Source of the DNA: an uncultured Enterobacterales bacterium
GTDB taxonomy: Bacteria; Myxococcota_A; UBA796; CAJQPC01
Assembly: GCA_964567625.1 (NCBI GenBank)
Contig: CAZMNK010000013.1
Span: 2,934 to 61,907, forward strand
DNA: 58,974 nucleotides
Direction of reading: 5' to 3'
Every line of letters begins with the position of its first letter. Positions within the stretch are counted from its first letter, which is position 1. This document shows, piece after piece, positions 1,931-13,543 of the stretch. Made by a program: the position numbers and the translations under genes. Under the pieces are notes generated by a model, which saw only the letters and a list, made by a program, of their open reading frames with translations, was not told the origin of the DNA and did not search any database.

Positions 1931-3502
1931 ATGACTTCTCTCCTCCTTCTTGGCGCCGCCCTGGCTGCCCCGGCGCATGTGCATCCCACGGCCGACACCC
2001 TGACCAAGCAGTCCCTCACCGAGAGCGTCTGGGAACACTTCGACCCGGCAACGGCCTCGCCATCGCTGGTGGACCGTTTTGCCTGTGGCACCGGCGTAGT
2101 GCAGCAGTTGAAGGACAATTGGGACTGGTTCACCCCTGAAGAAAGGGCCGAGCTGACGAACCTGGTGGCTCCTTTCAAAGAGGACCTGCTCCAGGCACTC
2201 CCGGCGAATCCTCCACCGCCCCCGGGTGAGTTCCCCGAGGGAACCTGCTGGGAACAGATGGGCACCTACCGACACGCCACCGATCACTTTGCAGTGGAAT
2301 GGGACGGGTCGAACATCGAGGAGTCCGACATCGAGGACTTCGGCGAGGCGTTGGAGACGGCCTGGAGCAACCAGGTCGAAGAGCTGGGTTGGAGGCAGCC
2401 CCACAAGAGCGACGAGTACAAGGTGATGGTCTACGTGGACAGTTCCAACTACGCCGGCGCCTACACCTCGGTGGAGGTCTGCTCCGGCTCCCAGTTGGCC
2501 TACATCGTCACCGGCAACGGCATCTTCTGGGGGGACTGGTACCAGGACCTGGCGGCCCACGAATTCAACCACGCGATCCAGTTCGCCTATGGCTACGCCC
2601 ACGAGTTCTACTTCTGGGAGTCCACAGCCACCTACATCGAGGAGCAGACCTACCCGTCCCACAATGCCTGGGCTCCGTACATCGCCGGCTACACGGCGAA
2701 CCCCTGGATCGCCATGAACGCGTCCAGCCAGCAGAGCCAGGACATCTTCAGCCACATGTACGCCATGGCGATCCTGAATTTCTACCTGGATGAGTACGTG
2801 GGGGGACACGATCTCATCCGGGAACTCTGGGAGTACTCAGAGCGCTTTCCCATGGACGTCTACAACCTGTACCTGCCGGATGCCCTGGAGTCCCTGGACC
2901 ACGACTGGAACGAGATCTACACCGGCTTCATCGCGGCGAACACGGTCATGGACTACGAGGAAGGCAACCGCATGGGCCGCGTCGAACGCATGGACTGGTT
3001 CGACGAGTTGCCCGTGAATTCGGCCAACAGCGAGCGAGTCACCCGACCCGAGAGCCTGGGCCAGAACTTCTGGCGACTCAATGGCGATGCGGCAGACAGC
3101 GATGAGCCGGACCTGGTGCTGCTCTTCGAGGGTGAACTGGACGGTGAATGGCTGGTGCTCCTGGTGGGCACCACCGACGACCGGGTCCAGCGGATCGTGA
3201 CCGCCGAGGCCGTTGATGGCGATGACGATGTGGAAACCTACGAGGCCTTGATGACCGACTGGGGCCAGCACGAGGACGTCTGGGTCGTGATGTCGCCCAC
3301 CACCCGGTCCGATGAGGACTTCAGCTATGTCTTTGACCTCTGGGCCGAGGCCCCTCCCGTGGAGGAGACGGCACCGGAGGAAGAAGCTGAGGAAGGGACT
3401 CGGCTGCCCATCGTGGGCTCCTGCTCCACCTCGCCTCTCGCACCGCGACCGGCCTGGCTGTGGCTCGCCCTGGCCGGCCTGGTGGTTCGCCGCCAGCGCT
3501 GA
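1931..3502 (+). CDS. Secreted zinc metalloprotease (MXAN_6640-like) with MYXO-CTERM-type C-terminal anchor
   Basis: Signal peptide MTSLLLLGAALAA from ATG 1931, HEFNH zincin motif with downstream WESTATY, acidic body, C-terminal GSCSTS...WLWLALAGLVVRRQR. The ORF-track start at 1265 overlaps tmk. Confidence 0.8.
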   Translation: MTSLLLLGAALAAPAHVHPTADTLTKQSLTESVWEHFDPATASPSLVDRFACGTGVVQQLKDNWDWFTPEERAELTNLVAPFKEDLLQALPANPPPPPGEFPEGTCWEQMGTYRHATDHFAVEWDGSNIEESDIEDFGEALETAWSNQVEELGWRQPHKSDEYKVMVYVDSSNYAGAYTSVEVCSGSQLAYIVTGNGIFWGDWYQDLAAHEFNHAIQFAYGYAHEFYFWESTATYIEEQTYPSHNAWAPYIAGYTANPWIAMNASSQQSQDIFSHMYAMAILNFYLDEYVGGHDLIRELWEYSERFPMDVYNLYLPDALESLDHDWNEIYTGFIAANTVMDYEEGNRMGRVERMDWFDELPVNSANSERVTRPESLGQNFWRLNGDAADSDEPDLVLLFEGELDGEWLVLLVGTTDDRVQRIVTAEAVDGDDDVETYEALMTDWGQHEDVWVVMSPTTRSDEDFSYVFDLWAEAPPVEETAPEEEAEEGTRLPIVGSCSTSPLAPRPAWLWLALAGLVVRRQR

Positions 3503-3518
3503 AGGATAGAACCTGTCG

Positions 3519-4145
3519 ATGATCGCCATCGACGAACACCCGCTGCTCGACCTCCAGGCCTTTGAGGCCATCTTTCCGGATGTCCTGGGTCCACTGACCT
3601 CGCCCCAGTCCTGGCTGGATCTTCTCCAGCCCGAGGCTGTGGGTCCCATGCAGACCAGTGCCGAGGTGAAGCTGGCGGTCCGCGACCTGCTCCGTCACGG
3701 GGGTTTCAAGCCCAGTGGGCGCAGCAAGCCGGCATCGGAGTACCTCCTCAAGGCTGCTGCGGGGGGATTTCTGGGCCCCATCAACCCGGTGGTCGACGCC
3801 TGCAACGTGGTGAGCCTTCACAGCGGCCTGCCGATCAGCGTGGTGGATGTGGATCGGGCAGTCGGGTCCCTGAGCGTGGCCATCTGTCCCCCCGAGACCA
3901 GCTACGTCTTCAACGCCAGTGGCCAGGAGATTCGGCTGGACGGCCTGGTCTGCCTTCACGATGGTGAGGGACCCTGCGCGAACGCGGTCAAGGACTGCCA
4001 GCGCACCAAGACCCACGAGGGCACGACTCGGGTGGTCTGCGTGGTCTGGGGAACGACGGCCCTTCCCGGTCGCGCAGCGGAGGCGGCGGGCTGGTACCGA
4101 GAACTCCTGGAAGAGGTGGGGGCGACGACGAGCGCTCTGTCGTGA
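3519..4145 (+). CDS. Stand-alone B3/B4 domain protein (PheRS beta editing-domain-like)
   Basis: GFKPSGRSKPASEYL, INPVVDACNVVSLHSGLPISVVD, DGEGPCANAVKD. Confidence 0.8.
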   Translation: MIAIDEHPLLDLQAFEAIFPDVLGPLTSPQSWLDLLQPEAVGPMQTSAEVKLAVRDLLRHGGFKPSGRSKPASEYLLKAAAGGFLGPINPVVDACNVVSLHSGLPISVVDVDRAVGSLSVAICPPETSYVFNASGQEIRLDGLVCLHDGEGPCANAVKDCQRTKTHEGTTRVVCVVWGTTALPGRAAEAAGWYRELLEEVGATTSALS

Positions 4146-4160
4146 CCCCCTTGCCCGGTC

Positions 4161-5564
4161 CTACTTGTTCAGCACGTGAATCGCCTCGCCAAGGGCGGCC
4201 TTGGCGGCTTCCATCACGCTCTCCCCCAGGGTCGGGTGGGGGTGGATGGTCAGCCCGATGTCCTGGGCCTCTGCGTCCATCTCGATGGCCAGGGCACACT
4301 CGCTGATCAGGTCGCTGGCGTGGGCGCCGACAATGGTGACGCCCAGTACACGGTTGTCGTTGGCGTCCAGGACGACCTTGACGAAACCGTCGGTGTCGTT
4401 GGTGGTGAGGGAGCGGCCCACGGCGGCAAAGGGGACCTTGCCGACCTTGAGTTCGTGGCCACGGTCGCTGGCCTCGTGCTCCATCAGTCCGGCAGTGGCG
4501 ATCTCCGGGTCGGTGAACACCACGGCTGGCACAGTCCGGGCCTGGTTTTCGACGTTGTGGCCGGCGATGACCTCGGCGACGACCTCGCCCTCGTGGGTGG
4601 CCTTGTGGGCGAGCATGGGCTGGCCGGCCACATCGCCGATGGCGTAGAGCCCGGGCACGCTGGTCTTGCACTGCCGGTCGATTTTGATGAACCGGCCGTC
4701 CATCTCTACCCCCAGGTCCTCGAGTCCCAGGTTCTCGGTGTTCGGACGGCGACCGACCGTGACCAGGATCACGTCGGTCTCCAGGCTTTCGGTGCCCTTG
4801 GGGGTCTCGATGGTGACCACGGCCCCGTTCTCACCCTCTTCCCAGCCCAGCGCCTTGGACTTGAGCTTGATGTCGACCTTGTTCTTCTTGAGTTTGCGGG
4901 CGATGACCTTGACCACGTCCGGGTCGAATCCAGGCATGAGCTGGTCCATGAATTCGACCACCGTCACGTGGCTGCCAAACTTGTTCAGCACGCTGCCGAG
5001 CTCCAGGCCGATGTAGCCCCCGCCAATGACGACCACACGTTCGGGCAGGTCCTGGATGTCCAGGGCCCGGGTCGAGTCCATGATCCGGGGATCGGCGAAG
5101 CTGAAGCCGGGGATCTCGACCGGCCGGGAGCCCGTGGCCAGCACGATGTGGTCGGACTCGACTCGCACGGTGCCCTCGGCGGTCTCGACCTCCAGGGCCC
5201 CAGGCCCCACGAGCCTGGCGGTCCCGGACATCCGGTCCGCGCCATTGCCCTTCAGGAGTGCCTGGACCCCGTTGGTGAGCTTCTTCACCACGCTGCCCTT
5301 CCAGGCTTGCATCGTCGGTATGTCCAGGGTCGCCTCGCCGCTGACCTGGATGCCCATGGCTCCGGCCTTGCGGATCTCGTGCAGGCGCTTGCCGGCGGTG
5401 ATCAGGGCCTTTGACGGAATGCAGCCCACGTTCAGGCAGACGCCGCCCCAGTACTCCTTTTCGATGCAGAGGGTCTCGACCCCCAACTGTGCGAGGCGAA
5501 TGGCGCAGGGGTAGCCCCCGGGGCCTGCTCCGACCACGACGGCCTGGTACCGCTTGGTTTCCAT
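4161..5564 (-). CDS. lpdA: Dihydrolipoamide dehydrogenase (E3)
   Basis: GAGPGG FAD motif, GGVCLNVGCIPSK redox disulfide, GGGYIG NAD motif, HPHPTLGE. Confidence 0.96.
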   Translation of the reverse strand: METKRYQAVVVGAGPGGYPCAIRLAQLGVETLCIEKEYWGGVCLNVGCIPSKALITAGKRLHEIRKAGAMGIQVSGEATLDIPTMQAWKGSVVKKLTNGVQALLKGNGADRMSGTARLVGPGALEVETAEGTVRVESDHIVLATGSRPVEIPGFSFADPRIMDSTRALDIQDLPERVVVIGGGYIGLELGSVLNKFGSHVTVVEFMDQLMPGFDPDVVKVIARKLKKNKVDIKLKSKALGWEEGENGAVVTIETPKGTESLETDVILVTVGRRPNTENLGLEDLGVEMDGRFIKIDRQCKTSVPGLYAIGDVAGQPMLAHKATHEGEVVAEVIAGHNVENQARTVPAVVFTDPEIATAGLMEHEASDRGHELKVGKVPFAAVGRSLTTNDTDGFVKVVLDANDNRVLGVTIVGAHASDLISECALAIEMDAEAQDIGLTIHPHPTLGESVMEAAKAALGEAIHVLNK

Positions 5565-5585
5565 GACTTCTCCTGCTGTTCTGCT

Positions 5586-6278
5586 TCAGCCGACGCTGAG
5601 GCCGACGTCCCCGCTGGGATCGGTTTCGTTGAGTTTATTCCGGGTTCGCTCGAGGGGGTCCTCGCCGGGGGTGAGATGGGCTTCAATGAACCGGGGTCCT
5701 CCGGCTGCGCGGGCGTTGGAGACCGCGCTCAACACCTCACTGAGCAGGCCCCCGTCCACCTTGCGGGCCTGGATCCCAAAAGCCAGGGCGTGATGGCTCA
5801 AGGTTCCGGACAACTGCTCCGCGTAGGGAGCGTCTTGGCCCCTCTGCCATGCGTGGGCCAGGAAGATGACCCGCAGGTGGTGGAGGGCGGCGAAGTTCAG
5901 GGACTCGTGAAAGGCGCCGCAACTGGCGGAGCCCTCGCCCAGAAAACAGAGCACCGCGTCCTTGGGGTTGGCCATCGCCAGGCCGCAGGCGTGAAGCATG
6001 CGGGCAGCGGGGGAGGTGGTGACAGGTGCGACCCGCCAGGGCCGGGCGCCGGCGTGACCGTCCACCAGTCGCTCCGTTGGGCATCCTCGCAGGACCACCC
6101 CCAGCCGTTCCCGCAGCCCGGGGATGACCCAGTCGGTCTTCTCTATACCCAGAAATCCTCCAGCGATGACGGCCTCCAGGCCCTGGGCGGGCACCGGCAG
6201 CGGAAGGGTTCTCGCCGCCTGCAAGGCCTGGTCGGTCTCGCGGATCAGGCTCAGGGCATCCCACATCGACAGCTTCAC
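5586..6278 (-). CDS. Short, degenerate 2-oxoacid dehydrogenase E1 alpha-like protein
   Basis: GLEA, DWVIPGLRE, LCFLGEGSASCGAFHESLNFAA, VDGG, GGPRFIEA all match E1alpha. It is only 230 aa, the NN of the ThDP motif is replaced (FLAHAW) and the YR..H loop is absent. Confidence 0.75.
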   Translation of the reverse strand: MKLSMWDALSLIRETDQALQAARTLPLPVPAQGLEAVIAGGFLGIEKTDWVIPGLRERLGVVLRGCPTERLVDGHAGARPWRVAPVTTSPAARMLHACGLAMANPKDAVLCFLGEGSASCGAFHESLNFAALHHLRVIFLAHAWQRGQDAPYAEQLSGTLSHHALAFGIQARKVDGGLLSEVLSAVSNARAAGGPRFIEAHLTPGEDPLERTRNKLNETDPSGDVGLSVG

Positions 6279-7597
6279 GAGAGGTCCAGGATCAGTGTGG
6301 CGGGGGTCTCCAGGATCTTCTTCAGGGCGGCCACGAACCGGGCGCCTACGGCCCCATCGATGATCCGGTGATCAAAAGAGGGGGACAGGTACATCATGTC
6401 GCGAATGGCGATCTCGCCATCGACGACCATCGGCCGTTGGACGATGCGGTTCACGCCGAGGATGGCGACCTCGGGCACGTTGAGGATCGGGGTGGCGAAA
6501 ACGCCGCCGATGTTGCCGACGCTGGTCACGGTAAAGGTGCCACCCTGGAGCTCCTCCATGCGGACCTTGCCCGCCCGGGTGCGCTCGACCAGGTCCGCCA
6601 TCTCCGCTGCGATCTGCAGCACCGACTTCTGCTCGACGTTCTTGACGACCGGCACGAACAGGCCCTGGGGCGTGTCCGTGGCCACGCCGATGTTCACATC
6701 GCCCTTGACCACCAGGGTGAAGGGATCCTCCTCGAGGACCGCATTGACGTTGGGGAAGTCCCGGAAGACGAGGCTGGCGGCCTTCATCACAAAGGGGAGG
6801 TAGGTGAGTTTCACACCCCGGGAGGCAGCTTCCGTCTTGAGCTGGTTCCGAACCCGGACCAACTCGGTCACGTCGATCTCGTCCACATAGGTGAAATGCG
6901 GGGCGGTCTGCTTGGCGTGGACCATCTGCTCGGCGATCTTGCGGCGCAGGCCGATGATCTTGATGCGTTCTTCGGCGCCGCTGGGCACGGCATTGGCCTG
7001 GGGCACCGCGGGGGGCGCCTTGGGTGCGGGCGGCGGGGTGGCAGCGGCTGCCTGGGCTGCAGGAGAGGTCAGGGCCACCAGGTCCGCCCGGGTCACGCGG
7101 CCATCCTTGCCACTGCCAGTCACGGCACGCAGATCGATGCCCAGCTCCTTGGCCTGGCGGCGCACGGCTGGGCTGGCCAGGGCCTTGGAAGGCGCTGGTG
7201 GGACGGGGACAGGGGCCGGCTCGGCGGCTGCGAGTGGGGGCACTGCGACGGGGCCCGGAGGGGGCACGAGGGTGGGCTTTGTGGCTCCTCCGTTCTCCGG
7301 GGGTTCGGGGCGGGTCTTGGGCGCCATCGTGGACTTCGCGGGGGCCGCAGCGGCCTGGCCGTCGCCCGTGGCGATGTCGACCAGCGGGGCGTGAACGGCC
7401 ACCACATCGCCGGCGGCATGGTGCAGCTTGGCGATTCGACCGGACCTGGGAGTACTGATCTCCACGGTGGCCTTGTCGGTCATGATCTCGCAGACCGGCT
7501 GGTCTTCGTTGATCACGTCTCCTTCGGAGACCAGCCAACGAACGACTTCACCTTCGATGATGCCTTCGCCGATTTCGGGCAGTTTGAACTGGAACAT
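6275..7597 (-). CDS. Dihydrolipoamide acyltransferase (E2) of a 2-oxoacid dehydrogenase
   Basis: Lipoyl domain with MTDKA, Ala/Pro linker, peripheral subunit-binding domain (ASPAVRR..GSGKDGRV), catalytic DHRIIDG. Confidence 0.95.
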   Translation of the reverse strand: MFQFKLPEIGEGIIEGEVVRWLVSEGDVINEDQPVCEIMTDKATVEISTPRSGRIAKLHHAAGDVVAVHAPLVDIATGDGQAAAAPAKSTMAPKTRPEPPENGGATKPTLVPPPGPVAVPPLAAAEPAPVPVPPAPSKALASPAVRRQAKELGIDLRAVTGSGKDGRVTRADLVALTSPAAQAAAATPPPAPKAPPAVPQANAVPSGAEERIKIIGLRRKIAEQMVHAKQTAPHFTYVDEIDVTELVRVRNQLKTEAASRGVKLTYLPFVMKAASLVFRDFPNVNAVLEEDPFTLVVKGDVNIGVATDTPQGLFVPVVKNVEQKSVLQIAAEMADLVERTRAGKVRMEELQGGTFTVTSVGNIGGVFATPILNVPEVAILGVNRIVQRPMVVDGEIAIRDMMYLSPSFDHRIIDGAVGARFVAALKKILETPATLILDLS

Positions 7598-7609
7598 GAG
7601 GGAGGACTC

Positions 7610-8524
7610 CTAAAACTGAACGCTGCTCACCAGGGCAGCAGCGACCTGGTCCGGGTTGCCTGCTGCGACGGCAGGCGGGGACTCCAGGTAGAGAAAGGCG
7701 GCATCGGTCGTGGCTCTGATGAGCCGGTCTTCCAGGGTTTGATCGGAGGACTCCGATCCGACCACCAGGACGCGACCGGTACGACGGACGGACTTGGCGA
7801 GGGTGGCCAGGTCCAGGGGGGACAGGGAGCGGAGATCCAGGACCTCGGCCTTGTAGCCGTGGGGTTCGCAGGCCTCGGCAGCGGCGAGGGCGGTGGCCAC
7901 ACCGGCTCCCCAGGAGAGCAGGGTGATGTGGGCGCCACGACGGACGATGCGGGCGGAACCCAGGGGGACCGGGTGTTCGTTCACCGGTCCCTGCGTGGCG
8001 TAGAGGGCCATCGGCTCCAGGATCACGACCGGTCCCCGGTGGCGCACGGCGGATCGGAGCAGTCCGCCGGCATCCTGGGGGGTCGAAGGGCTTACCACCG
8101 CCAGTCCCTCGGTGCTGCTGAGCAGGCCGGCAACGCACGCTTCCTCCAGGGCCCCGACCGGGCCAAAGGGCAGGCGCAGGATCAGAGGCGCCACGAATTC
8201 GCCACGGGTTCGCCGGGCCAGGGTGCTGATCTCCCCCAGGAGCTGGTCCAGGGCCCCGTGCACCCGTCCGGCAGAGGGCAATTCCACGATGGGAATCCGA
8301 CCGCCCATCGCCAGGCCTGCCGCCACGCCGAGCAGTCCGGATTCGCTGAGAGGCGTCTGGATCACCCGTTCCGGTCCGTAGGCAGCCCTCAGTCCCTCGC
8401 AGGTCCCGGCCACGCCACCCAGCGTGTCGACGTTCTCCCCCAACAGGAGGATGTCCGGCTCCTGGAGCATGAGCTCTTCAAGGGTGTCTCGGATGGCTCG
8501 GGCCATCGTGATGGAGGTGCTCAC
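7610..8524 (-). CDS. Degenerate 2-oxoacid dehydrogenase E1 beta-like protein
   Basis: LLGENV..GGV, RVIQTPLSE, PSTPQDA.GLL, LDLRSLSPLD, RTGRVLVV match E1beta. EIQF is replaced by ELPS and the HS catalytic motif is missing. Confidence 0.85.
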   Translation of the reverse strand: MSTSITMARAIRDTLEELMLQEPDILLLGENVDTLGGVAGTCEGLRAAYGPERVIQTPLSESGLLGVAAGLAMGGRIPIVELPSAGRVHGALDQLLGEISTLARRTRGEFVAPLILRLPFGPVGALEEACVAGLLSSTEGLAVVSPSTPQDAGGLLRSAVRHRGPVVILEPMALYATQGPVNEHPVPLGSARIVRRGAHITLLSWGAGVATALAAAEACEPHGYKAEVLDLRSLSPLDLATLAKSVRRTGRVLVVGSESSDQTLEDRLIRATTDAAFLYLESPPAVAAGNPDQVAAALVSSVQF

Positions 8525-9429
8525 AGGGTCAGCTCCTCTGCAGGCGTTTGCCCGTGCTGCAGGAACTCGCGGATGTAGTACTCCCCGGCCTTGTAGCTCG
8601 AGCGAACCAGCGGGCCCGAGGCCACCACTTCAAAGCCCATGGTCCTGGCTTCCTCTTTCCATTCGTCGAAGCGCTCGGGATCGATGTAGGCATCGACCTT
8701 GAGATGCTTTGCGGTGGGCTGCAGGTACTGGCCGAGAGTCAGAAAGGAGACACCGACGTCACGCAGATCTCGCATGCACTGGCGGACCTCTTCCGTGGTC
8801 TCGCCACACCCCACCATGATCGAGGACTTGGTGTGGTGGGTCGGGCGGCGCTGTTTCAGCCAGGCGAGCACGTCCAGGCTCTGCCGGTAGCCGGCCCTGG
8901 GATCCCGGACGGTTGGGGTCAGCCGTTCCACGGTCTCGATGTTGTGGGCGATGACGGTCGGGTTGGCGGCGACGATGTGTTCCAGCAGGTCTGTACGGCC
9001 CTGGAAGTCCGGGATGAGCACTTCGACCAGGGTCTTCGGGGCGGCCTGGTGGATCGCCCGAATGCAGGTGGCGTAGTGGTCGGCCCCCTGGAGCGGAAGT
9101 TCATCGCGGTTCACCGAGGTGACCACCACGTAGTCCAGGTCCAACTCCCGGATGGTCTGGGCCAGGTTCGTCGGCTCGTCGGGATCCAGGGGGGCGCCAG
9201 CCCGACGGGTGTTCACCGCGCAGAAGCGGCAGCCGCGGGTGCAGATGTCACCCATGACCATGAACGTGGCGGTTCCGCCACCCCAGCACTCCCCGATGTT
9301 GGGGCAACGGGCTTCCTCGCACACGGTGTGCAGGTTCAACTCGCGGGCTCGAGCCTTGATCCGCGCGTAGCGGGCCTGGCGCTCGCCGGACGGCTGCCGA
9401 ACCTTGATCCAGGGGGGCTTGCGACCCAA
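8521..9429 (-). CDS. lipA: Lipoyl synthase
   Basis: KPPWIK, CEEARCPNIGEC, CTRGCRFC, PLVRSSY. TTG start at 9429 has GGAGG upstream; the 558-aa ORF extension is antisense to the peroxiredoxin gene. Confidence 0.95.
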   Translation of the reverse strand: MGRKPPWIKVRQPSGERQARYARIKARARELNLHTVCEEARCPNIGECWGGGTATFMVMGDICTRGCRFCAVNTRRAGAPLDPDEPTNLAQTIRELDLDYVVVTSVNRDELPLQGADHYATCIRAIHQAAPKTLVEVLIPDFQGRTDLLEHIVAANPTVIAHNIETVERLTPTVRDPRAGYRQSLDVLAWLKQRRPTHHTKSSIMVGCGETTEEVRQCMRDLRDVGVSFLTLGQYLQPTAKHLKVDAYIDPERFDEWKEEARTMGFEVVASGPLVRSSYKAGEYYIREFLQHGQTPAEELTL

Positions 9430-9507
9430 GATGCGTGCCTCCCGTTGGGGGAGATTCTCGTAACCGACGCACTGGGGGTGCTCCAGGGAGGGGGTTAGGC
9501 TCATGCC

Positions 9508-10038
9508 ATGTCGCAACGAAGAACCCCCCCCTCGGTGGGCCAGGCAGCACCTTCCTTCAGCCTGCTGGATCAGCACGGTCAGCGGCACCGGCTCGTCGAC
9601 TATGACGGCCGGGCCCTGGTGCTCTGGTTCTACCCCAAGGACTTCACCAAGGGTTGAACGATCGAAGCTCGCGGGTTCCGCGAGATCTGGGATCAGTGCC
9701 GGAGCCACGGGGTTGCAGTGCTGGGAATCAGCCTGGACTCTGCACAGCGCCACAAGGCCTTTGCCGAGTCTCTGGACGTTTCCTACCCACTGCTGGCGGA
9801 CACCCGGGGCGAGATGGCGCGGGCCTACCGGGTCAAGCGAGGCCTTGGCCCGTTGAGCGTGGCGGCACGGAAGACCTTTCTGGTAGGGCCGGATCACTGC
9901 GTGCTCAAGCGGTGGGACGAGGTGGACGTCTATGCCCACCACACCCAGGTGCTGGTCGCCCTGTCCGAGGCGGGCCTGCTCGGCGAGGAGAACATCCCGG
10001 TTCGCGGGCTGCGGAAGAACAAGCCGAAGTCGGACTGA
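9508..10038 (+). CDS. bcp: BCP/PrxQ-type peroxiredoxin containing selenocysteine (U50)
   Basis: Continuous frame from ATG 9508: ...VGQAAPSFSLLDQHG...LVLWFYPKDFTKG-TGA(9655-9657)-TIEARGFRE...VLGISLDS...YPLLAD...RKTFLVG. The TGA occupies the Cys of PxxxTxxC. Confidence 0.9.
9668..9684 (+). promoter_or_regulatory. Putative bacterial SECIS element
   Basis: Perfect 7-bp hairpin CTCGCGG-GTT-CCGCGAG starting 10 nt after the in-frame TGA. The apical loop begins with G, 17 nt from the TGA. Confidence 0.8.
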
Positions 10039-10131
10039 AGCGGCTGTGAACGGCCCCCAAACCCCCTGAAGCGCGAGGCTTCGGGCGGGAGAGCCCGTGG
10101 TCCATGGCGTTGACGGCACGTCCTCACGAGG

Positions 10132-10160
10132 AAAAAAGGGTGGAATTTCCACCTTTTTTT
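10132..10160. terminator. Near-perfect palindrome; possible bidirectional intrinsic terminator or operator
   Basis: AAAAAAGGGTGGAA-T-TTCCACCTTTTTTT: 14-bp arms with one G:T, A-tract on the left and T-tract on the right. Confidence 0.5.
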
Positions 10161-10167
10161 GATCCTG

Positions 10168-10242
10168 ATGGGAGAAAACACCACCATAGAGCGCCATGAC
10201 GTGGTATTAAATCTCCCATGATGGTAGAAAACACACCATCAT
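10168..10242. promoter_or_regulatory. AT-rich operator-like repeat array upstream of the regulator gene
   Basis: Direct repeats ATGGGAGAAAACACCACCAT (10168-10187) and ATGGTAGAAAACACACCAT (10221-10239); inverted repeats ATGGGAGA/TCTCCCAT and ATGATGGT/ACCATCAT, the latter overlapping the ATG at 10241. Confidence 0.55.
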
Positions 10243-11443
10243 GAGTACCCTCGCCGACGCCGTCTCCGTCTTCCGCGGAAACCCCTTCACAGACGACGCC
10301 GTCGCATCCCGTGCCCGCCTGGGCCGACTCCTCCTGAAACCACCTGCCTCATGGGCGTTCCGCGGCGCCCGGCAGGGGGAGGTTCCCTACGGTCTCGAGG
10401 ACCTGGTCCTGGCCATCGCCCACGCCCGGGCTTGCGCTCTGGTGGATCCCAGGGGAGTGTTGGACGAGGCCGTGGTTCCAGACACCGTGATGGCGGAATT
10501 GCCCCGGTCGCGCCTGGACTACACGCGAATCGCGCTGGCCGCCAGTCGCTGCTTTCGCGCCCTCCAGGGCTTTCCGGGTCGGTCCCCCGCCATGGCTCGG
10601 GTGCGGCGACAGGCCTGGACCCGGGCCCTGGGCAGTTCTCTTGTGGAGGCCCTGGACACGGAATCCCTGCGACGGGCTCAGCCCCTGGTGCTCTGCGGGG
10701 AACCGGGGACCGGTCGCCGGGCCCTGGCCCTGGCCATGCTCTCGGGGTTGCCGGCGCCCTCGGGCCGCACTCCCTGGACCGGTCCGACGTTGGCCCCCTG
10801 GACCCCCGCCGGGGTTCCCTCGCCGGCCGGAGGGTTGGTGGTGGAGGGACTGGCCAGTCGGGGGCCAGAGGAGATTCGGATGCTCCGTACAGCGCTGGGC
10901 CAGCCTGGCACGGCACGGTTGGCCTTTGTCTGTGGTCCATGGGAACTGGTGGCACCGGTTCTGCCGCCCGACCTGGTGGCGCGTCTGGCGCCCCTGCGGC
11001 TGGCCATTGCGCCACTGCGGGACCGGCCCGAGGACCTGGAAGCCCAGGTTCTCGCTCGACTGGTGACCTGGGGGCCACAGTTGCGGTCGAGTGGCGCACC
11101 CGGTCTGGACTTCGACCGGGTGCTCCGGTGGTTCTCGGGGCCAGAGGCCCTTCAACACGGCTGGCCGGGCAACCAGGATGAGCTGGAGACCGCGGTCCGT
11201 GCCCTGGTATTGGGGACCTCCCCCAGCTTGCCGACGGCGGAGAGGGCCGAGACCGAGGCGCCCTCAAAGGACCTTCCAGCCGGACTCGCTGGGGGGACCT
11301 GGAGCGATCGGCAGGTTCGGGACTGGTACCTCAAGCGGGTCCACGAACGGACAGGTCGGGTCGGGAAGACGGCCAGCGTCCTGGGACTGGATCGGGCCAC
11401 GGTGAGACTTCGCCTCCGGGAAACCGGTTCGGAGGTTTCGTGA
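10241..11443 (+). CDS. Degenerate sigma54-activator-like (AAA+) regulator with Fis-type HTH
   Basis: GRSPAMARVR, LCGEPGTGR, PLRDRPEDL, HGWPGNQDELE, C-terminal KTASVLGLDRATV. No GAFTGA and no recognisable Walker B DE. Confidence 0.7.
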   Translation: MSTLADAVSVFRGNPFTDDAVASRARLGRLLLKPPASWAFRGARQGEVPYGLEDLVLAIAHARACALVDPRGVLDEAVVPDTVMAELPRSRLDYTRIALAASRCFRALQGFPGRSPAMARVRRQAWTRALGSSLVEALDTESLRRAQPLVLCGEPGTGRRALALAMLSGLPAPSGRTPWTGPTLAPWTPAGVPSPAGGLVVEGLASRGPEEIRMLRTALGQPGTARLAFVCGPWELVAPVLPPDLVARLAPLRLAIAPLRDRPEDLEAQVLARLVTWGPQLRSSGAPGLDFDRVLRWFSGPEALQHGWPGNQDELETAVRALVLGTSPSLPTAERAETEAPSKDLPAGLAGGTWSDRQVRDWYLKRVHERTGRVGKTASVLGLDRATVRLRLRETGSEVS

Positions 11444-11839: not shown

Positions 11840-13543
11840 CTACTTGATGCGGTGGCCGCCCATCTCGTTGTTGAAGATCCAGGCCACGACCTCGCCCAGT
11901 TCAAAGCGATCGCTCATGAAGGTCTGGATGTTGGCGGCCGCCGAGCCCGCCTGTCGCAGGTCGGTGCGGGCCTGTTGCATCAGGGCCACCCGCCGGCGCC
12001 AGCGACGAATGTTCTCGGGTCGCAGGTCCACCCAGCCCTTGCGGGCCCAGGCGTCCACGCTCTCGGCGGTGAGGTGGGCCGTGTCGACGTGGCCCATCAC
12101 TTCGGGGACATTGATCCGGGGACCCCGAAGGAGGGTCTCTCCATCGGGGAGCAGCACCGGGATCCCGATGCTTGGGGCCAGGCGAGCGATGCCAGAGGGA
12201 ACGAGGGCCTCCTCCATCGCTTCGGCCACCACGCTGGCGTCTCTGGTGTCGGCGAGCAGGGCAGCAGTGGTGCCCTTGCCGCGCTTGCCGTAGATGGCTT
12301 TCAGGAGTGACGCCTCAAAGAGCAGCTTGCTCAATTCCGGGGGCCCCAGGCGCCCCAGGGCGATCGAGGGCACTCCCTCACCGCTGGCGAGGACCTGTTC
12401 TTCACAGGCTGCCAGGTCTCGCAGGGCGACACTGCGCACCAGGCCTGCCTTGTAGCTGGGGTCCAGCACGGAGCTGTCCAGGGCGGAGATGATGTCCCGG
12501 CCGGTGTTGCGGCCTCGGAGTTCCTGGACGACGGTGTGGGCGATCTCCTCGGGGGTGATGTACTCCATCTGCCCCAGGGCGGTGATGGCAGCGAATTCTC
12601 CCCAGGTGAAGACCCCGTTTTCACCGGTGTCGAGCACGGGCACCTTGAGGTCGCCCACGGCTTCATAGGACGAGAACTGTTCGGCCAGGGGCAGTGCTTC
12701 ACCGGCCTTGAGTGCCAGGGTCTTGGGCAGGAAGATCCGTTTGTTGCCGTGCTTGTCGGTGACGTGCTTCACCTGGACGGCCCGGTAGCCGATCATCGCT
12801 GCGGGCTTGACCTCCTTGACGATGGGGCTCTCGGGGGTCCGGGCCAGCAGGAAGAGCAGGCCAGTGTGGCCAAAAGCGGCCTCGTTCTTGGCCAACAGCT
12901 TCTTGGAGGGCCGGTCTTCGGAGTGGGTGTAGGGGATGTTCAGACCCATGCCCCCGGTGCCGGTGGTGCCGACCTTCAGGTAGACCTTGGTGCCATATTC
13001 ACTGGTCGCACGGTGCAGGAAGCGGATGTGCCGGATGATCTGGGGCACCGACTGGGACAGGAGAAAGGTCTCCAGGTCCTTCGTTCCCTCGGAACTGAAG
13101 CCGTCCTCGTCGATCCAGCTGCGCACCTTGGCGGCGCCGTCGAAGACGTCCTGGTAGCTCAGACCGGTGGCGGTGTTGACCGCATCCACGATCACGTCTG
13201 GCCGGTGGCGCTGGATGAGCTGGACAAGGTGGTTGTTGCCGTAGGCATCTTCGATGGGTCCGTAGAGGGCCTCGAGCAGTTGGCTCCGCTGCGCGATGTT
13301 GTCCAGGACCTCGCCACGTGGGCTGTCGGCGAGGCTGGTGGGGACGAACAGGTTGCCCCAGGCGGGAACGAAGCTGACCCGCTTGCCGAACTCCTGCTGG
13401 TGGACCCGACAGGCGTCCTCCGCCTCCTTTTTCTGGAGGCTGGCGACGATGATGCGGTGGGGGTCCAGGGAGCGCACGATGTGCCGCACGACCTGCGTGC
13501 CCACCAGTCCGGCGCCGCCCAGGATCAGGAAGTCATGGTGCAT
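11840..13543 (-). CDS. Large Rossmann-fold NAD(P)-dependent oxidoreductase, uncharacterised
   Basis: N-terminal LILGGAGLVG, DAVNTAT, KVGTTGTGGMGLNIPYTHSE; 567 aa. Confidence 0.7.
   Translation of the reverse strand: MHHDFLILGGAGLVGTQVVRHIVRSLDPHRIIVASLQKKEAEDACRVHQQEFGKRVSFVPAWGNLFVPTSLADSPRGEVLDNIAQRSQLLEALYGPIEDAYGNNHLVQLIQRHRPDVIVDAVNTATGLSYQDVFDGAAKVRSWIDEDGFSSEGTKDLETFLLSQSVPQIIRHIRFLHRATSEYGTKVYLKVGTTGTGGMGLNIPYTHSEDRPSKKLLAKNEAAFGHTGLLFLLARTPESPIVKEVKPAAMIGYRAVQVKHVTDKHGNKRIFLPKTLALKAGEALPLAEQFSSYEAVGDLKVPVLDTGENGVFTWGEFAAITALGQMEYITPEEIAHTVVQELRGRNTGRDIISALDSSVLDPSYKAGLVRSVALRDLAACEEQVLASGEGVPSIALGRLGPPELSKLLFEASLLKAIYGKRGKGTTAALLADTRDASVVAEAMEEALVPSGIARLAPSIGIPVLLPDGETLLRGPRINVPEVMGHVDTAHLTAESVDAWARKGWVDLRPENIRRWRRRVALMQQARTDLRQAGSAAANIQTFMSDRFELGEVVAWIFNNEMGGHRIK

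Follow-up and report, generated by a model that had tools for sequence, protein, structure and literature searches.

2-Oxoacid dehydrogenase complexes are textbook assemblies, and the non-catalytic paralogue subunit known among their components is, to our knowledge, the E3-binding protein (E3BP, or protein X). The eukaryotic pyruvate dehydrogenase (PDH) complex contains E3BP as a structural and docking subunit, paralogous to a catalytic component and without a known catalytic function (PMC8146983). The subject of the present analysis is an operon for such a complex in a 58,974-nucleotide stretch of DNA, hereafter, the window (positions 2,934 to 61,907 of contig CAZMNK010000013.1, assembly GCA_964567625.1), from an uncultured bacterium deposited as a member of Enterobacterales and assigned to Myxococcota_A in the GTDB. 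The two E1-like proteins of this operon, which we denote alpha' and beta', lack most of the residues that support catalysis in known E1 enzymes, and it seems reasonably probable that they descend from a Geobacillus-type PDH E1, have lost catalysis and have been kept by selection as a non-catalytic pseudo-E1 pair of the complex.

The closest solved relative of alpha', beta' and the E2 of the operon is the PDH of Geobacillus stearothermophilus (E1p, structures 1W85 and 3DUF), with which they share domain folds; its E2 has the same architecture as the operon E2, namely, a lipoyl domain, a peripheral subunit-binding domain (PSBD) and a catalytic domain. PMC2663715 assigns roles to several E1p residues: in the alpha chain, D173, N202 and Q200 hold the network of Mg and the diphosphate of the cofactor, thiamine diphosphate (ThDP), Y102 touches the thiazole and the phosphate, and H271 adjoins the outer loop (residues 275-293), whereas in the beta chain, E59 activates the cofactor, F85 stacks on its pyrimidine, and H128 is described as "conserved in all known E1s", the H128N variant being inactive. 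Compared with this enzyme, alpha' lacks ~47 N-terminal and ~70 C-terminal residues, Y102, D173, N202 and the H271 loop, and in beta', Q81, F85 and H128 are missing, along with a portion of the C-terminal tail. Gene order differs as well, being alpha-beta-E2-E3 in Geobacillus and lipA-beta'-E2-alpha'-E3 in the window.

The likeness between E3BP and the pseudo-E1 is an analogy of working only, given that E3BP descends from E2 and belongs to the core, whereas the pseudo-E1 is derived from E1, bacterial and paired, with a presumptive binding partner. In Carassius, E1 paralogues have been neofunctionalised in an ethanol-producing pyruvate decarboxylase pathway, with a proposed loss of E2 binding (betaD319N; PMC5554223). 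There, too, duplicated or redundant E1 subunits have entered a new relation to the complex, but the Carassius proteins are a mirror image of alpha' and beta': they kept catalysis, whereas alpha' and beta' lost it and are proposed to have a complex-bound role. Split transketolases, such as that of Carboxydothermus (6YAJ/6YAK), have a similar two-gene layout, with a ~230-280-amino acid pyrophosphate-binding (PP) protein and a ~310-amino acid protein that combines the pyrimidine-binding (Pyr) and C-terminal domains; however, split transketolases keep the ThDP motifs, whereas alpha' and beta' lost them and sit in a lipoate-dependent operon. Identity with a split transketolase was ruled out by these lost motifs and by the affinity of beta', which matches such proteins at E=6.8e-13 compared with E=2.7e-58 (phmmer) for Geobacillus E1beta, with TM scores of 0.78 and 0.95, respectively.

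Active-site residues and predicted folds of alpha' and beta'

Residues were mapped through phmmer alignments to the Geobacillus E1p chains, with roles taken from PMC2663715. Alpha' aligns with E1alpha at E=7e-11, covering residues 71-263/264 of 368; beyond the end of the alignment it has only 30 residues, with no YR..H, so that the missing parts comprise the N-terminal segment, the H271 region with the outer loop, and the ~70 C-terminal residues. Within the aligned core, Y102 is replaced by L55, D173 by E115, and Q200, N201 and N202 by H142, A143 and W144, with R103 kept as R56. In terms of motifs, alpha' carries GEG at position 114, FLAHAW at 139 and FIEAHLTPGEDPL at 197, and the pattern G.G-X(24-30)-NN does not occur in the window protein, which scores 93.3 bits on the NCBIfam model TIGR03181, far under the cut-off of 411.

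These losses pervade the family of short alpha' relatives described below. Among 85 proteins, the position of the Asp in GDG is occupied by Gln in 54, Glu in 13, Ile in six, Val, Leu and Thr in three each, and other residues in three; neither position of the NN pair holds Asn in any of them, with Trp, Arg or His instead; and the Y102 position is Leu in 75. Of 33 columns that are invariant among 72 canonical relatives, 18 are lost. At the same time, ten positions have become invariant (A15, L19, G54, R58, G60, L63, R70, L71, P80 and R93), and R56, P151 and Q155 are retained, corresponding to R103, P209 and Q213 of the Geobacillus enzyme. The C-termini vary: a sub-clade of longer proteins (P0027, P0029, P0033, P0039, P0042 and P0048; 245-269 amino acids) ends in a Rho_N/SAP-like helix-extended-helix domain, which was detected in all six sub-clade proteins scanned at 32-43 bits against a cut-off of 24.9, whereas alpha' of the window clade ends in an acidic tail, GEDPL..A.DELTETDP, and a third group stops directly after IEA.

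Beta' has TPLSE at position 57, ELPS at 81 and PFGPVGALEE at 119; EIQF and HS motifs were not found in it. The cofactor-activating E59 is kept as E61, but Q81 is replaced by P83 and F85 by R87, and the position of H128 is occupied by E127 or, in a second alignment, by a gap. The protein scores 190 and 185 bits on two NCBIfam beta models with cut-offs of 454 and 321, respectively. The catalytic His is absent or deleted in all 19 operon-derived beta' orthologues. For a broader comparison, 44 beta' members (the 19 from operons and 25 database proteins) were set against 92 canonical proteins; given that members were assigned by the absent catalytic His, the His count in this larger set is by construction. 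Across it, 34 of 71 canonical-invariant columns are lost, only three positions are newly invariant, and Phe is found at the F85 position in 2% of the members. The strictest conservation within beta' lies in a C-terminal patch, AFLYLESPP, aligned with the face through which canonical E1beta binds E2: F277, L280, E281 and P283 occur in all 44 members, E281 aligning with Geobacillus E285/E286 (phmmer), and all 44 end in an aromatic residue, compared with 58 of 92 canonical proteins. On the opposite side of this putative contact, the basic and glycine positions of the E2 PSBD are invariant in 19 orthologues.

AlphaFold2 models built from orthologue alignments have high confidence for both alpha' (pLDDT 91.4, pTM 0.89) and beta' (pLDDT 92.7, pTM 0.91), although resemblance to solved E1 structures on which the predictor was trained may raise these values. 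The beta' model superimposes on Geobacillus E1beta (1w85_B) with TM scores of 0.95/0.90 and a root-mean-square deviation of 1.5 A, that is, as a full E1beta fold, whereas the alpha' model matches E1alpha chains at 0.78-0.82 when normalised by the query and ~0.5 when normalised by the target; the latter value is expected because alpha' consists of the core domain only. Both are, therefore, predicted to be folded proteins rather than debris.

The sequence-only reading of this stretch had described a 230-residue E1alpha with GEG, FLAHAW and no YRxxxH loop, an E1beta in which TPLSE is kept, ELPS stands for EIQF and PFGPVGALEE for HS, and E2, E3 and LipA with their catalytic motifs in place; each quoted motif was found where it had been reported, and the alignment to Geobacillus E1p upheld the loss of active-site residues from both subunits. 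By sequence homology, with Pfam hits above the cut-offs (PF00676 for E1alpha; PF02779 and PF02780 for E1beta), alpha' and beta' belong to the E1 superfamily, but they are not classed as E1 enzymes because the defining catalytic features are missing. Judging from the sequences and models, they show the combination by which pseudoenzymes are recognised, namely, lost catalytic residues, an intact frame, purifying selection and a retained fold.

Extent of the family and selection on the pair

A search of 5.8 billion proteins recovered 85 clusters of short alpha' relatives (177-269 amino acids, E <=1.8e-25), beyond which the next match was a canonical E1alpha at E=2.7e-10. A profile search against 1.84 billion representatives produced 38 clusters at E <=1e-30, one of which, P0048, already stood in the query alignment; 36 of these are short (133-267 amino acids) and one has 618 amino acids, with canonical proteins of 330-390 amino acids appearing only from ~117 bits downward. 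Of 41 related genomes, 38 had a match to alpha', all but G018 (78% complete), G022 and G034, and the matches in one family of these relatives, f2, are canonical full-length alphas. The alpha-beta-E2-E3 cluster of f2 was considered as the ancestral state and set aside: its orthology is doubtful because the f2 E2 is only 39-41% identical. In a 201-genome sample of the phylum, alpha' is present in 25 of 28 genomes of the window's order; outside that order, the sample contained no alpha', only alpha of canonical length. The named records that carry the family are uncultured metagenome-assembled genomes labelled Myxococcota or Deltaproteobacteria, some of them evidently mislabelled. In particular, L069, L070, L076-L078 and L080-L082 are titled "uncultured Enterobacterales" or "Alphaproteobacteria bacterium", although their nearest relatives are labelled Myxococcota or Deltaproteobacteria, so these titles look like automatic mislabels. 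Among the matches of the homologue P0030 are further clusters of short E1_dh proteins (235-296 amino acids), in one of which the few taxonomically recorded members are mostly assigned to Uroviricota (tailed phages). The distribution of short E1alpha-like proteins that stand alone may be wider than the alpha' family.

The order lipA-beta'-E2-alpha'-E3 is kept in 17 of 20 fetched loci; two of the others are cut by contig ends, and in the third (L056), lipA had no hit. E2 and alpha' overlap or directly adjoin in all 20 loci, and lipA and beta' overlap in 14 of 18, as counted with heuristically picked start codons on gene calls made in this analysis. In the window, both junctions are GTGA overlaps, formed by the E2 stop with the GTG start of alpha' and by the lipA stop with the start of beta'. 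Only one of 20 alpha' loci and none of 18 beta' loci has a broken reading frame, with identity ranging down to 36% and 31%, respectively. The exception, the alpha' gene of G005 (L050:7083-7746), has a frameshift about two-thirds along in the assembly; P0028, with 28 member sequences, is a nearly identical protein that is intact.

Within the genus, Nei-Gojobori ratios of nonsynonymous to synonymous substitution (dN/dS) are 0.12-0.38 for alpha' and 0.25-0.51 for beta', next to 0.19-0.36 for E2, 0.20-0.32 for lipA and 0.12-0.31 for E3, although at 67% G+C such estimates are probably inflated, in all genes alike. Both alpha' and beta' are under purifying selection. They nonetheless evolve faster than their neighbours, with mean pairwise identities over the same 17 genomes of 0.55 for alpha' and 0.43 for beta' compared with 0.64-0.69. 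Each forms a single group in its own tree, the branch between beta' and canonical beta having an SH-aLRT support of 100, and the branches are long: the alpha' stem measures 2.28 substitutions per site, and the beta' end branches reach 1.8.

The regions of alpha' and beta' are matched with zero indels by contigs from the DNA runs of three separate marine studies; one of these runs may represent the sample from which the window came. Because these independent contigs agree, the frames are real, and an assembly artefact as their origin was ruled out. So was a split gene that would encode the missing C-terminus of alpha elsewhere, the gap between alpha' and E3 being 21 bases and the genome containing three E1_dh hits.

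Several expectations of the sequence-only reading could be followed here. It had noted that both frames are intact, that the start of alpha' is coupled to the stop of E2, and that the order beta-E2-alpha-E3 is non-canonical, all of which hold in the window, and had named synteny and dN/dS as checks; the conserved loci and the ratios of 0.12-0.51, similar to those of the neighbours, agree with it. The case that it gave as refuting, namely, that close relatives would have intact orthologues and only the window a decayed pair, was not seen, the alpha' and beta' orthologues of the same genus sharing these losses. Its proposal of a maintained non-catalytic E1 is, therefore, supported by losses throughout the family, retained order, purifying selection and confidently predicted folds.

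Companion genes, a fused E1 and the sister families

The five genes of the operon run head to tail, and lipA, E2 and E3 have scores typical of their Pfam and NCBIfam families (Table 1). E2 contains a single lipoyl domain, has TDKA, PAVRR and DHRIIDG, and finds its closest solved chain in Geobacillus PDH E2 (3duf_I, E=7.5e-96, full-length match); E3 has CLNVGC and HPHPTLGE and is the sole hit in the genome over the lipoamide dehydrogenase cut-off (TIGR01350); LipA has both Cys motifs, CEEARCPNIGEC and CTRGCRFC, its start codon being uncertain in that the open frame extends to 10197. A scan of positions 3400-10400 yielded no promoter-like sites and five terminator-like sites compared with 3.7 expected, which is uninformative. 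Two long open reading frames (ORFs) lie next to the operon, one of them divergent from lipA; neither has a Pfam match at E <=0.001.

Table 1. Coordinates of the operon, of other genes for E1 and E2 components in the genome, and of degenerate alpha genes (alpha*) in sister families (plain numbers are window positions; aa, amino acids)
Feature	Location	Strand	Description
lipA	8521..~9450	minus	lipoyl synthase, ~309 aa, first in operon; PRK05481 399.8 bits (NCBIfam cut-off 203), TIGR00510 394 bits
beta' (E1beta-like)	7610..8524	minus	304 aa; Pfam Transket_pyr 72.7 bits, Transketolase_C 74.5 bits
E2 dihydrolipoyl acyltransferase	6275..7597	minus	440 aa; Pfam 2-oxoacid_dh 296 bits, Biotin_lipoyl, E3_binding
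alpha' (E1alpha-like, truncated)	5586..6278	minus	230 aa, PP-domain core only; Pfam E1_dh 54.8 bits
E3 dihydrolipoyl dehydrogenase	4161..5564	minus	467 aa, last in operon; TIGR01350 552 bits (cut-off 408.8)
flanking ORF, divergent from lipA	10241-11443	plus	400 aa
flanking ORF	11840-13543	minus	567 aa
fused E1alpha-beta	C3:15137-17371 (L002:220-2454)	minus	745 aa; E1_dh, Transket_pyr, Transketolase_C
SucA and SucB	contig C58		
AceE beside AceF	contig C47 (aceE, C47:18464-21129)		AceE, E. coli-type PDH E1
alpha* of G117	L168:5042-5872		short, degenerate
further alpha* loci	L164:9787-11016; L165:~5290-6244; L166:~5000-5961; L169:~5640-6560		

The genome contains four E1-type and three E2 genes. 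The sequence-only reading had suggested looking for canonical E1 genes elsewhere, and the search revealed what it had not foreseen, a fused E1alpha-beta with all checked catalytic residues, orthologues of which (61-82% identical) are present in 37 of the 41 relatives, the four without it all belonging to f2. The fused protein shares superfamily domains and genomes with alpha' and beta', but is a single chain that keeps the motifs and is encoded away from any E2. It is closest to the E1beta of Thermus and Pseudomonas branched-chain 2-oxoacid dehydrogenases, bears the JGI label "2-oxoisovalerate dehydrogenase E1 component", and keeps the equivalents of Y102, R103, D173, N202, H271, E59, Q81, F85 and H128, those of the alpha half being assigned by motif pattern; the 14 checked motif positions, which comprise catalytic and cofactor residues together with adjacent ones, are kept in all 120 clusters. 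Past the end of canonical E1beta, the fused E1 has a C-terminal extension, gW.W.PPRyF, with W, W, P, P, R and F each in at least 90% of the 120 clusters; this extension could be a docking peptide.

In two relatives, G007 and G014 (95-96% complete), the single full-length E2 is that of the operon, and the only E1_dh genes are those for the fused E1alpha-beta and alpha'. Because these genomes have no other intact E1 or E2, the fused E1 probably serves the operon E2/E3 core. In the genome of the window, aceE is split, one base having been lost in a T run (GCT TT. GTC) near C47:19440-19490. AceE was found in four of the 41 relatives and not in the three genomes from the same genus, and looks like a sporadic acquisition that is here broken or mis-assembled.

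The fused E1 is also encoded in two sister families of the same class, f8 (four of five genomes) and f9 (two of two), where the operons are in a different state. In the f9 genome G117, the order is lipA-alpha*-beta-E2-alpha-E3, with an intact beta and a downstream alpha that is full-length and intact (GDG, NN and TYRxGAH), whereas alpha* is short and degenerate, with GEG and no NN; the other f9 genome, G064, has the same E2-alpha-E3 end. In f8, the operon of four genomes is lipA-alpha*-beta-E2, with an intact beta and an alpha* that is full-length but degenerate, with GPA for GDG, SS for NN and no YR..H; in the two f8 genomes where the locus of the fused E1 was inspected, an intact alpha gene is its neighbour. 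A dead alpha*, thus, coexists with an intact beta in both families. In one f8 genus pair, dN/dS is 0.285 for alpha* compared with 0.088 for beta, and alpha* is itself under purifying selection. On the alpha' profile, the intact alphas score 78-107 bits and alpha* 53-66 bits. Because the intact f9 alpha has the higher score and occupies the same slot between E2 and E3, alpha' is read as its orthologue; in this scheme, alpha' and beta' would be degenerate orthologues of the intact f9 alpha and beta, and alpha* an older, separate dead paralogue. In a quick tree, alpha' did not join alpha*, and its placement was not confidently resolved.

Roles considered for the pair and their implications

Under the reading that we favour, the fused E1alpha-beta would supply decarboxylation in trans to the E2/E3 core of the operon, and the pseudo-E1 would still assemble and dock on E2, acting as a structural or regulatory peripheral subunit of the complex rather than as an enzyme. 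Docking on E2 is favoured because the C-terminal patch of beta' is its most constrained part and the basic and glycine positions of the PSBD are invariant, so that the likely E2 contact would be AFLYLESPP together with the terminal aromatic residue. In Geobacillus E1beta, the Glu equivalent to E281 and the C-terminal carboxylate presumably contact PSBD arginines, and human betaD319 is a residue that we take to map to the C-terminal motif of beta'. The latter residue forms a key salt bridge to E2 in the human complex (PMC5554223). There also seems to be room for a ligand-sensing or adaptor role of alpha', because it has new invariant residues and, in one sub-clade, the Rho_N/SAP-like tail. More speculatively, and in our view rather doubtfully, the pseudo-E1 might be the E1-side counterpart of E3BP, a non-catalytic docking or gating subunit that tethers the fused E1 to the Geobacillus-type E2 core or controls access of the lipoyl arm, perhaps with ligand gating through the Arg-lined former pocket of alpha'; with alpha* kept in the sister families, non-catalytic E1 paralogues would then be long-standing in the complexes of this class.

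Several observations weigh against the favoured reading. The association of alpha' with beta', and of either with E2, is putative, the conserved C-terminal patch of beta' being an indirect pointer to E2 binding, and the role of E281 and the terminal aromatic residue as PSBD contacts is our assumption by analogy with the Geobacillus E1-PSBD structure. Moreover, the binding mode of beta' may differ or be lost, because the canonical D/P-rich C-terminal segment and R286 are gone. The ThDP-activating acid is largely retained in beta' (Glu in 12, Asp in six and Ser in one of the 19 orthologues), and alpha' may retain residual binding of cofactor or ligand, because R56, P151 and Q155 are kept. The fused E1 is never adjacent to the operon, its pairing with the E2/E3 core being reached by exclusion. 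All genomes with the family are metagenome-assembled and uncultured, and a single metatranscriptome run (X20), which contained two 151-base contigs within lipA and one partial contig within E2, yielded no transcripts of alpha' or beta', a result that is uninformative on expression either way.

A different, and in our estimate unlikely, role would be binding of a phosphorylated or anionic metabolite, without metal, in the former ThDP pocket of alpha', now lined by newly fixed Arg and Gly residues; alpha' and beta' would then sense the ligand allosterically for the complex, or carry out some new activity unlinked to canonical E2 docking. The ten family-specific invariant positions point in this direction, as do R56, R64, R79 and R82, which are kept around the canonical diphosphate-contact segments, the better conservation of alpha' (0.55 versus 0.43 mean pairwise identity), the gain of only three invariant positions in beta', and the Rho_N/SAP-like domain of the sub-clade, a gain that shows continued functional tinkering. 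However, the ligand cannot be named, the clustering of arginines is one of positions along the sequence, and the tight operon and the coupling to E2 fit a complex-bound role at least equally; furthermore, ligand binding overlaps with the docking pseudo-E1 and does not exclude it.

Could the pair still be an active ThDP-dependent E1 that binds its cofactor in an unorthodox manner and serves the operon E2? The folds are intact in the models, Glu or Asp occupies the ThDP-activating position of beta' in 18 of 19 orthologues, alpha' retains G114-x-G116 along with R56, P151 and Q155, purifying selection is strong, and the f8 operon pairs a degenerate alpha* with a fully intact beta. Nevertheless, we regard retained activity as improbable, considering that the Mg ligands are replaced (Asp by Gln, Glu, Ile, Val or Leu, and Asn by Trp, Arg or His), Y102 has given way to Leu, the H271 loop and ~70 C-terminal residues are deleted, F85 of beta is replaced, and the beta His is absent in 19 of 19 orthologues despite being universal in known E1s, where H128N is inactive (PMC2663715); to this are added scores far under the NCBIfam equivalog cut-offs and a fully competent fused E1 in the same genomes. 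At the other extreme, alpha' and beta' could be neutral relics, pseudogenes made redundant by the fused E1 in which frames have not yet broken, a scenario that accommodates their faster evolution compared with the neighbours, the long branches (2.28 for the alpha' stem and up to 1.8 for beta' ends) and the frameshift in one of 20 alpha' loci. That scenario strikes us as scarcely credible, since frames are otherwise intact (19 of 20 and 18 of 18) despite identities as low as 36% and 31%, dN/dS is well below 1, as in the neighbours, stop/start coupling is conserved, the models are confident, there are family-specific invariant residues, and the G005 protein has a near-identical intact copy.

A literature search at the level of listings and abstracts, which covered subscription journals thinly, returned no report of a non-catalytic (bacterial) E1, and the findings described here suggest a previously undescribed, non-enzymatic, E1-derived subunit in 2-oxoacid dehydrogenase complexes. 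Automatic annotation names alpha' and beta' proteins "pyruvate dehydrogenase E1" or "thiamine pyrophosphate-dependent enzyme", labels that would mislead metabolic reconstruction of these marine bacteria. If the favoured reading is true, E1 can serve the complex in a way that does not depend on catalysis, and the active E1 of an E2 core can come from another locus. The sister families, in turn, would provide a series that leads from an intact alpha and beta accompanied by one degenerate alpha to a state in which both subunits are degenerate, a natural experiment on the origin of a pseudoenzyme inside a multienzyme machine.

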